Translations under genes and position numbers: made by a program
Shown here: in pieces, positions 93 to 2,155 of the stretch
Layout of the letters: every line of letters starts with the position of its first letter
Numbering within the stretch: the stretch's first letter is position 1
The notes under the pieces: generated by a model
The model's database searches: none
What the model was told of the DNA's origin: nothing
What the model saw: only the letters and a program-made list of their open reading frames with translations
IMG/VR virus record: IMGVR_UViG_3300045125_000085
Coordinates: 64,001 to 128,000 of that record
Strand: one strand, 5' to 3'
Origin: a virus
DNA length: 64,000 nucleotides

Positions 93-259
93 TTATCCGG
101 TAATGCTGGCTAAGACATATTAATCACATCGGTCTCATGCTTAAAGCTAAAAGTACCATCAGACGCGATGTAGTAATGTCGGCTATTAAGAAAATCTTTG
201 ACTTCTTGTTGGGCATCAGTAGTGAAACACATAGTCCAACTCAAAGTATCGCCATCGAA
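93..259 (-). CDS. Exon 2 of virion RNAP beta' (middle/catalytic) subunit
   Basis: From 259 reads FDGDTLSWTMCFTTDAQQEVKDFLNSRHYYIASDG...; completes exon 1 (...LSRLDCD) to DCDFDGD. Stop is TAG at 110-112 as assembled, or TAA at 93-95 if one indel is corrected. Confidence 0.88.
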
Positions 260-668
260 CCCAATGTCCACGTCTATCCTAGACGCCGGTGCGCAATGAC
301 ACCCGCCCTGAGTTTCTTCAGGGGGCAGACTATCTCATTACCCTCGCCTCTTCTTGTGGAATAGCGGTCGGGTACTTCCCATTTCGACGCACACTCCTAG
401 TGCTGTCTACGCCTTGCTGAAGGGCTAGTCGTTGAGCCTACCTCATGCCCTTTTGGGGTTTAGAGGCTTCGCTGCGTGGTTGCCCAATCCTAACCATGCC
501 GTAATACGACAGGGACTTTTTGACCCGTCACGCTCGCCTTTCAGGCCACGTTGTGGGGGGTTAGGCTCTAAGGGTATTCCCGCAATTAGGAAGGCACTCA
601 TCTCAGTTTACACCGAGAGAGGGACAATAGTAAGAAAATATGCTACATCATATTAAGCTTACTCTAGT
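260..668 (-). ncRNA. Group I self-splicing intron (409 nt, no homing endonuclease ORF)
   Basis: 5' exon ends in U (669) and intron ends in G (260). Minus-strand core elements: P AAUUGCGGGAA (587-577), Q AACCACGCAGC (481-471), R CUCAACGACUA (436-426), S AAUGAGAUAGUC (339-328). P7 GACUA/UAGUC; P1 has a U.G pair at the splice site (IGS CUUACUAUUGUC, 634-623); P9 hairpins present. Confidence 0.93.
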
Positions 669-2114
669 ATCGCAGTCAAGACGGCTTAAATGAGGGAGAG
701 CAGGTGACATAGCGTTTACCCCACCTTCACCCCGTATAGGAAACTCAGGAGCTACTACCTCAGTCTTTTCCCAGCTACTGTCTAATAAGTAGCGTACCTC
801 AGTCCTCGCTGTCGCTTTGACATGTGGGTAACTCGGGTAGATGCTACCAAACCCAGTAACAGGATAACGCGTCACGTAGCCTGGTAAAGTCGGTGCTCGT
901 TGAAAGACCGAGATATACAGTAACTCACAAAAGCTCACAGGACGTACATCAGCTCGATTACGCTCAGGTGGTAGTTCATCTATATCTTGGAATAACCTAA
1001 ACGTACCATCTGGCCCAGTATATAAAAGACCAAAATAGCCTTCAGGTAATTCGAGCACATTATGTCTAAGCTCTTCCTCACCAAAGCGATTCAAGACTTT
1101 CTGTAAGCCTTCGTTAGTCATCCACTCATCGTAGACATAACTAGCGACATCTACCCATTTCGGCTTTAAGGTCTTTTTATCGACTAAGACAGCCGGTGAG
1201 TTAGGTCCTTGAAACACTTGACTTAGAAAGCCATTCCTGATATCAAAGAAGACTATAGGTAAAGCACTCTTAAGAAACTGATAGAGTCCTATCACTGACT
1301 GATTAGGATCTAGCAATCTAGGTGAGTCTAAGCTATCGACTTTCTGGATCAGTGCGGTAGCTACATTACGCGTACTGTTAAAGATCTTGCGTGAAGCCCA
1401 CTTACCTAAGATCATTTTACCTTTGCCTTCCATCATCCCTCTAAAGTAATCGTAGATTTCTATAAAGGTCTCTTGCATCTGGTAGCGTACGACATCCATA
1501 GACTCAGGATTATTCTTCAAAGCAGCCGGATCTATCATACCGGCTAAGGAGATCATGCGTTTATATGGCTTATTGATCTCACCTTCTGAAGGTTTACCAT
1601 CTTCATCATACTCGTAGTCTCTTAAACCTGCCGGCAAGATGATTAGCTTATCGATCAGAGGTTGTTCCCTATACTTCTCCACTAGCTTAATGTTAAACTG
1701 TCTAAGTGGACTAGCTCTAGTCTCGAACACGAGCTCACCAAAATGCTCTAAGAAGAAAGTATAGCCTGTACGACCCTCCATAGGCGTAGACTTAATAAAG
1801 TCTCTATTCGTAGCATCCCAGAGAGCATAGCCTTTACCTGAAATAATATCTGCATACAGCTGCTTTAATTCCTTAATGGCTTTAAACAGTACGGGATGCA
1901 GTAGTCCTATATTTAAGCGTACGTAGGAGAAAGTACGGTTACGGCGCTCATCGCCGACTTTACCAAAGATCTCAGTGCTGAATAAGCCGTTAGCTCTATA
2001 GGTACGAGTAGACGGCTCGAAAGTATCGATCGTGGTGACTGGCGGGATACTGCGCACCATCTCCTCAGTCGGTATGAGGATATTGATATTAAAAGGTAGC
2101 ATGTTTACTGACAT
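669..2114 (-). CDS. Exon 1 of virion RNA polymerase beta' subunit (phiKZ gp180-like)
   Basis: beta'-type motifs GLFSTEIFG, ILPAGLRD, GKWASRKIFNSTRNV, VTRYP; reading frame reaches the metal-binding motif exactly at the intron; likely start ATG 2114. Confidence 0.9.
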
Positions 2115-2155
2115 AGTAGCCCTCAAATCGTTTGAATTATTTAGGAGTTTGTATC

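Follow-up and report, generated by a model that had tools for sequence, protein, structure and literature searches.

A group I intron without a nuclease gene probably interrupts the DFDGD codons of a virion RNA polymerase gene in a relative of phage phiKZ

The window analyzed here is a stretch of 64,000 nucleotides (nt), positions 64,001 to 128,000 of the 144-kb IMG/VR virus record IMGVR_UViG_3300045125_000085. Near its left end, on the minus strand, lies a gene for the beta-prime N-terminal subunit of a virion RNA polymerase (RNAP), which bears the metal-binding DFDGD motif. A preliminary description of this locus had reported that the annotated open reading frame (ORF) ends in ...HLSRLDCD followed by TRVSLI*, without the full motif, and that removal of 668..260 as a group I intron would restore it. 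Both claims are borne out by the profile match and by the intron-less relative described below, and it is very probable from the aligned sequences that 668..260 is a subgroup IA group I intron, lacking an endonuclease, that sits within the DFDGD codons and must be spliced out. The principal features are the following.

669..2114, minus strand: exon 1 of the virion RNAP beta-prime N-terminal subunit gene, 482 codons (phrog_2986, tblastn and identity with phiKZ gp180)
260..668, minus strand: very probable group I intron with no nuclease ORF, 409 nt (Rfam, exact absence in relative L005, covariation)
306..641, minus strand: end-to-end match to RF00028, P2 to P9 (Rfam covariance model)
110..259, minus strand: exon 2, FDGDTLSW..., 49 codons plus stop as recorded (phrog_2986 profile positions 485-532)

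The annotated ORF begins with ATG at 2114..2112, six bases downstream of a GAGG at 2124..2121, and stops at 650..648. It consists of 482 homologous codons followed by six codons of non-homologous intron sequence and the stop, and its unspliced product of 488 residues contains one of the three catalytic Asp residues. Exon 1 closes with GAC TGC GAT, in which GAT at 671..669 encodes the first Asp of DFDGD. From position 259, TTC GAT GGC GAT ACT encodes FDGDT, and 45 further codons follow FDGD before the stop at 112..110. Taking out 668..260 (409 nt) fuses exon 1 in frame to FDGDTLSW (259..113). When compared with the PHROG profile phrog_2986 (RNA polymerase beta subunit), exon 1 matches positions 1-484 (E 6.5e-162) and exon 2 matches positions 485-532 (E 2.4e-10). 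These positions adjoin one another, indicating that the two coding pieces are one gene. In the homologue of Ralstonia phage RP12, the corresponding stretch is unbroken and reads ...HLKRLGADFDGDTASG... (RLGADFDGDT) opposite HLSRLDCD/FDGDTLSW of the window, where the slash marks the intron position.

The identity of the gene is further indicated by its relatives. The preliminary description had proposed alignment with homologues of phiKZ gp180, and this alignment shows exon 1 to be 36% identical to gp180 (E 4e-109) and exon 2 to be 33% identical to the stretch 3' of the phiKZ intron, with the same D/FDGD cut. Gp180 is the DFDGD-bearing subunit of the phiKZ virion RNAP (PMC10612078). Its RefSeq label is structural head protein; for the homologues in Erwinia phage RAY and Klebsiella phage N1M2, the annotation is virion RNAP beta-prime. 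Tblastn searches with exon 1 match about 300 jumbo-phage RNAP genes. Relatives were found through protein comparison only, as megablast and blastn searches of the gene and the intron against 50,697 phage records gave no match. A Pfam search of exon 1 and exon 2 gave no match, and a sequence search of the Protein Data Bank (PDB) with exon 1 matched no solved structure, which fits a subunit other than the solved non-virion gp55 type, although this is weak evidence. The residue before the first Asp is Cys in place of the usual Ala, as had been pointed out, and the same RLDCDFDGD is present in a 92%-identical relative (protein P0001, locus L005). On that comparison, the Cys is judged to be genuine.

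The same relative fixes the boundaries of the intron. L005 is a metagenomic sequence whose protein is 92% identical to that of the window and whose DNA is colinear with it, but from which exactly these 409 nt are absent; window positions 669 and 259 correspond to the adjacent L005 bases 4730/4731. The boundaries are thereby fixed to the nucleotide, and no alternative junction would preserve both the frame and the motif. The intron starts with A668 (ACTAGAG) and ends ...ATTGGG with its terminal G at 260. A search with the Rfam model RF00028 (Intron_gpI) yielded a match of 59.8 bits (E 5e-14) at 641..306 on the minus strand, covering the full model (1-253) and exceeding the gathering score of 50 bits, so that assignment to group I, as claimed in the preliminary description, held. 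It is the only match to this model in the window and in the whole record.

The structural elements placed within the intron are listed here.

375..594, minus strand: P3, CUUCCU/GGGAAG, strands at about 593..588 and 380..375, enclosing P4-P6
584-579/479-473, minus strand: P4, inside P3
573-571/485-483, minus strand: P5, inside P3
565-559/495-489, minus strand: P5a with a further branched extension, inside P3
472-456/450-436, minus strand: P6/P6a, inside P3
328..430, minus strand: P7, GACUA/UAGUC, 430..426 with 332..328, pseudoknotted with P3
425-420/415-409, minus strand: P7.1, inside P7, covariation in three of six pairs
407-404/389-386, minus strand: P7.2, inside P7, covariation in three of four pairs
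374-370/343-339, minus strand: P8, inside P7
261..323, minus strand: P9 to the 3' end region, three hairpins and a conserved 3' tail
323-317/312-306, minus strand: P9, first of three hairpins after P7
about 303-287, minus strand: P9.1, second of the three hairpins
about 286-270, minus strand: P9.2, third of the three hairpins
directly before the terminal G, minus strand: conserved 3' tail, GUGGACAUUGG
622..626, minus strand: internal guide sequence U-GUCC (fold of the 5' region)

This structure was tested on an alignment of eight introns from the D/FDGD site, namely those of the window, of L006 (a metagenome-assembled genome, MAG, at NCBI) and of six more phages including Pseudomonas phage OMKO1. 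The test covered 66 pairs in 14 helices, including P2, P3, P4, P5, P5a, P6, P6a, P7 (pseudoknotted with P3), P7.1, P7.2, P8 and P9. Standard pairs occupied 93.3% of the cells, as opposed to 39-47% when the 3' partners were slid by 1-3 columns, and both-side (compensatory) changes were observed in 45 of the 66 pairs. None of 500 shuffles reached any of the five measures. P7 is 100% paired and contains two compensatory pairs (GACUA/UAGUC, GAUCA/UGAUC, GGCCA/UGGUC). Between the window and L006 alone, 15 pairs are changed on both sides and yet still paired, and P9.2 adds further compensation (CGUCU/AGACG in the window versus CCCGU/ACGGG in L006). The presence of the P7.1 and P7.2 hairpins between P7 and the 3' strand of P3 places the intron in subgroup IA. 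Thus, the P3 strands, P7.1/P7.2, the extended P5 and the three P9 hairpins given in the preliminary description were all recovered. The fold of the single intron sequence is only modestly better than those of its shuffles (z = -1.98) and was not used as evidence. Two additional pairings proposed by RNAalifold, one of guide GUC with GAC of the 3' tail and the other a hairpin across the 3' splice site, were unsupported and were dropped from the tested structure.

The splice sites show the arrangement that had been described for them, with U at the end of the 5' exon (U669), a U.G pair in P1 and the terminal G at 260. In the fold of the 5' region, P1 consists of the wobble pair G625.U669 together with U624-A670, C623-G671 and U626-A668, and the P1 hairpin is 43 nt long. 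The guide GUCC is invariant across the family of introns at the D/FDGD site, and the GAU/GUC arrangement of P1 also folds in L028, L009, L041 and L042 despite different intron-side sequences. Every one of the 11 intron-bearing alleles encodes the first Asp by GAT, whereas among 32 intron-less alleles GAT occurs in 4 and GAC in 28; this association (Fisher 2.4e-7) involves related rows and is an indication only.

These features would be consistent with the following mechanism. The primary transcript would be spliced by guanosine-initiated two-step transesterification, in which P1, formed by exon GAU and the first intron bases with the guide UUGUC, would present the U.G wobble at the splice site. 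The predicted ligated junction is GACTGCGAT/TTCGATGGC, and the product would be a subunit of about 531-537 residues expected to yield the junction-spanning tryptic peptide LDCDFDGDTLSWTMCFTTDAQQEVK. Because the host gene is essential, the ribozyme fold would be kept by selection.

We found no nuclease associated with the intron. Its longest internal ORFs are 43-74 codons, and a Pfam search of these small ORFs detected no domain, in agreement with the earlier statement that the intron is ORF-less. Thus, the window intron lacks the intron-encoded endonuclease that would make it a homing intron. The wider search for a free-standing nuclease that had been suggested, carried out in six frames for HNH, HNH_3 and GIY-YIG domains, found none in the 144-kb record, which is only about 49% complete.

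Several observations weigh against an active, nuclease-free ribozyme at this site. A long-read study of the phiKZ transcriptome reported that no reads were spliced at the predicted introns (PMC10914365). The Rfam score of the window intron is the lowest but two in its family, and five cells in the window row of the fixed alignment are non-standard (in P3, P6, P6a, P7.2 and P9), although the one in P3 vanishes with a register shift of one base. Across the family, no consistent pairing is seen between UUCGAU and the bases 5' of the guide G, and no convincing P10 was found; the P10 of the preliminary description (CGAUGG with CUAUUG) reuses the guide G625 that pairs with U-1, lacks conservation in the family and is not supported. 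Many 1-nt insertions and deletions (indels) lie directly downstream, and the intron itself may likewise contain errors at single bases. Finally, the half or so of the genome that the record lacks could encode a free-standing nuclease. We infer splicing in vivo from the conservation of the ribozyme; the reasons proposed for its persistence are likewise inferred.

RNAP subunits of jumbo phages are already divided into several polypeptides (PMC7598289), and a true split gene would be a further case: exon 2 would be translated alone from GUG at 271..269 into a 53-residue peptide that assembles with the 488-residue piece, and the spacer RNA would be dead or unrelated. A GTG ORF at 271..110 was called, AGGA lies 5 nt upstream of the GUG, and all family members have an in-frame NUG four codons before exon 2. 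Most relatives, however, have CUG at this codon and one has UUG, indicating conservation of the RNA rather than of a start codon. Such a division would also fall inside a five-residue metal-binding loop, and the supposed spacer amounts to a complete group I ribozyme, with compensatory changes, a canonical U-1 and a terminal G. Given further that the gene is continuous in 68 of the 120 closest homologues and in the 92%-identical sister, we consider independent translation of exon 2 scarcely credible. A different objection is that the locus is decaying: splicing of the intron would have ceased, and the element would be defective or fragmentary, with its virion RNAP genes reduced to pseudogenes. 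Such decay could be read from an Rfam score below that of most relatives, from a 1-nt deletion in exon 2 that alters the last residues and from an adjoining beta-subunit gene broken by 28 gaps, mostly of single bases. Against this, substitutions in the beta gene relative to L005 lie at third codon positions (0.36-0.43 versus 0.02-0.13) even where the indels are densest, exon 1 is open over all 482 codons, and the intron helices in the lineage of the window stayed paired through the 15 double changes. We therefore regard decay as very improbable.

The indels themselves appear to be a matter of record quality. Compared with L005 and L006, exon 2 of the window lacks one base between 122 and 121 (ATTAAATATG in the relatives, ATTAATATG in the window), which turns ..IKYVLASITG* into ..INMS*. 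The bases 3' of this deletion, including the stop of the relatives and their next start codon, are conserved, and the deletion probably hides an exon 2 of 55 codons. Just left of the window, on the minus strand at about 60,075-64,086 of the record (L003 10075-14086), lies the virion RNAP beta-subunit gene. It is colinear with the intact gene of L005 (about 1416 amino acids, aa) and split into at least seven frames by the 28 gaps, which are mostly single inserted bases and not in homopolymers. The intact third-position bias of this broken gene indicates that it evolved intact and that the indels are very recent or errors; sequencing or assembly error is more likely than decay.

In a tree of exon-1 proteins, the window and the intron-less L005 are sisters and the intron-bearing L006 is next, both with full support. 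The intron of L006, whose host protein is 78% identical to that of the window, is 402 nt long, occupies the same site, scores 65.8 bits with Rfam and has no nuclease. The two introns are 64% identical, compared with 72% for the exons, and they have lineage-specific features in common (a long P7.2, a long P8, and P9.1/P9.2). L005, though intron-less, still has GAT as its first-Asp codon. The simplest reading of these sequences is that an ORF-less intron was present in the ancestor of the window and L006, was kept functional and was precisely lost in L005, although independent intron gains may have occurred instead. Over the 46 rows of the host-gene tree, the interrupted state needs at least nine changes, seven of which are forced by well-supported branches. 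The ORF-less state that the window has in common with a relative 72% identical in exons points to an old loss of the ORF or to its never having been present, and we favor the view that an ORF-less intron has been inherited vertically over a long period, in preference to a remnant left by recent homing.

The three reasons offered in the preliminary description for the missing nuclease (a post-homing remnant, mobilization in trans and destruction of a target site) may each still apply. In particular, the intron might protect the phage by removing the target of a gp179-type HNH nuclease of co-infecting relatives, and it might be mobilized in trans. The D/FDGD site holds an HNH-bearing intron in phiKZ and in PhiPizzaParty, a related intron nuclease of PhiPA3 cripples intron-less phiKZ at another virion RNAP gene (PMC11620839), and interruptions in 52 of 120 homologues, with at least nine gains or losses on the tree, make the site a hot spot. 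On the other hand, no nuclease was found in the 144-kb record or in the L006 intron, and the introns of the window and L006 are as diverged as their exons, a pattern already explained by plain vertical retention in an essential gene. Protection thus seems to us a possible but doubtful reason.

The extent to which this site is occupied was determined among the 120 closest protein clusters, of which 68 are continuous (about 536-548 aa) and 52 (about 43%) stop within the motif. Among the latter, about 26 stop after the first Asp, 19 stop after DxD, and a few stop after DxDG, after DxDGD or one residue earlier. In IMG/VR, a search with a single protein gave one locus and an alignment query gave 41, of which 12 are interrupted. 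A group I intron was detected by Rfam in each of the ten distinct interrupted IMG/VR loci; nine exceed the gathering score, and L028 scores 29.6 bits. The intron is absent in 35 of 47 matching Phikzvirus records. At L020 (4941-6726), the ORF ends ..GADFK, the motif being interrupted after DF by about 1.8 kb of sequence. The 3' end of this insert gives a weak Rfam match of 51.9 bits, and the insert is probably a nuclease-bearing intron at yet another position. Serratia phage 2050HW (L048 2501-4140) was rejected as an intron case; its three annotated coding sequences overlap end to end, pointing to frameshifts in the record.

Five IMG/VR relatives (L009, L041, L008, L042 and L030) have tandem group I introns inside the motif.

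L009 4947-5700: twin introns after Asp 1 and Asp 2, 6-nt micro-exon TTCGAT
L041 4932-5687: twin introns after Asp 1 and Asp 2, 6-nt micro-exon TTCGAT
L008 4947-5842: twin introns after Asp 1 and Asp 2, 6-nt micro-exon TTCGAT
L042 4935-5748: twin introns after Asp 1 and Asp 3, 12-nt micro-exon TTCGACGGNGAT
L030 4950-5956: twin introns after Asp 1 and Asp 3, 12-nt micro-exon TTCGACGGNGAT

In four of the five loci, both Rfam matches are above the cut-off; in L030 only the downstream intron is matched, and the upstream one is deduced from the junction sequences and not confirmed by Rfam. All of the junctions have T before the intron and G at its end, and the guides fit their own sites (GUCC, GUCG and GUCUCC). 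In introns at each of the three sites, a 3' tail of the form YUGRACAnnnnG (261-272 in the window) is conserved directly ahead of the splice site. The GGAC of this tail is complementary to the guide GUCC; candidate roles for the tail are an alternative pairing, P9.0 or a hairpin at the 3' splice site. We tentatively raise the possibility that one intron family colonized all three Asp codons of DFDGD, inserting after each GAU at points 6 nt apart, with guides GUCC, GUCG and GUCUCC and with micro-exons of 6 nt (UUCGAU) or 12 nt (UUCGACGGNGAU), and that the window copy is an arms-race state kept because it blocks gp179-type cleavage.

These results have consequences for annotation. Wherever the intron is present, automatic gene calling gets this subunit wrong, yielding here a 488-residue product without two of the three metal-binding Asp residues, and inferring a dead RNA polymerase or cloning the annotated ORF would mislead. 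The preliminary description had anticipated that gene callers would report a truncated subunit, and this is what is found in the NCBI MAG protein P0004, in OMKO1 (USL86798) and in RefSeq phiKZ (NP_803746). The same error thus extends from RefSeq phiKZ to OMKO1, a candidate phage for therapy, and to about 43% of the closest homologues from metagenomes. Among phiKZ-like phages, the DFDGD coding stretch is a hot spot at which introns are widespread. It is in this setting that intron nucleases have been shown to serve as weapons when phages co-infect a cell, a picture that the window leaves unchanged. What the window adds is a member of the phiKZ gp180 intron family that is old, compact and free of a nuclease.

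Subgroup IA introns of phages, some with an ORF and some without, include those of T4 td, nrdB and sunY, of the SPO1 DNA polymerase gene, and of Twort and LUZ24. As generally described, and as compared here through the Rfam model only, these classical introns resemble the window intron in occupying a conserved site of an essential gene and in having the U.G pair, the terminal G and P7.1/P7.2. They differ from it in their host genes, which serve nucleotide metabolism or encode DNA polymerase. Closer in setting is the gp210 intron of PhiPA3 (PMC11620839), likewise a group I intron at conserved Asp residues of the catalytic region of a virion RNAP gene. It interrupts the beta subunit gp211/209 (the homologue of phiKZ gp178), however, at another site, and carries an HNH nuclease. 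It is the model of an intron nuclease in competition between phages (Birkholz et al. 2024, PMC11620839).

The nearest known system is the intron of phiKZ itself. The phiKZ gp180 protein (NP_803746) has 490 aa and ends PLGAD*; a 1443-nt intron with PHIKZ179 follows, and then the FDGDTVSF exon. This exon of 55 codons, 3' of the gp179 intron, is unannotated in RefSeq (NC_004629 184157-190016; L051 759-3836). Gp179 has been described as an intron-encoded homing endonuclease (PMC12676376), and PMC11512511 lists an intron in gp180, with Ceyssens 2014 and Mesyanzhinov 2002 as sources. A full-text literature search for intron, DFDGD and phage found no paper that spells out the D/FDGD junction. The phiKZ and window introns lie in the same host gene at the identical point (GAU/UUY GAY GGN GAY), they share a conserved core, the GUCC guide and the YUGRACAnnnnG tail, and in both phages the annotated ORF is truncated after the first Asp. 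They differ in that the phiKZ type is 1443 nt long with a 357-aa HNH_3 ORF between the 5' splice site and the guide, whereas the window intron is 409 nt long and ORF-less. The host proteins are 36% identical, and blastn finds no DNA similarity between the two; since the pairwise comparison is negative, homology of the window intron to the phiKZ lineage rests on multiple alignment and structure.

The phiKZ-type gp179 intron is also present in the phages PhiPizzaParty, LC, T2P, U1B and Wadjak. That of PhiPizzaParty scores 93 bits and has a 357-aa ORF with an HNH_3 domain. In this intron (L050 3828-5270), the HNH ORF occupies intron positions 56-1129 and the guide GUCC is at 1110, so that the ORF, lying between the 5' splice site and the guide, is contained in the P1 loop and ends with codons that overlap the guide sequence. 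OMKO1 (ON631220; L049 1361-3470) has a 481-nt ORF-less group I intron at D/FDGD (Rfam 88 bits) that aligns with the window intron across the core and interrupts an ORF (USL86798) annotated only as a hypothetical protein. The OMKO1 intron is a recent deletion derivative of the phiKZ type, with 93.7% identity over the 3' 569 nt, and keeps 150 nt between the splice site and the guide, whereas the window intron is compact. Judged from these aligned junctions, the insertion site is one already known, being occupied by the gp179 intron in phiKZ, and the alignment assigns the window intron, at this heavily used site, to the phiKZ gp180 intron family as a member lacking an ORF.

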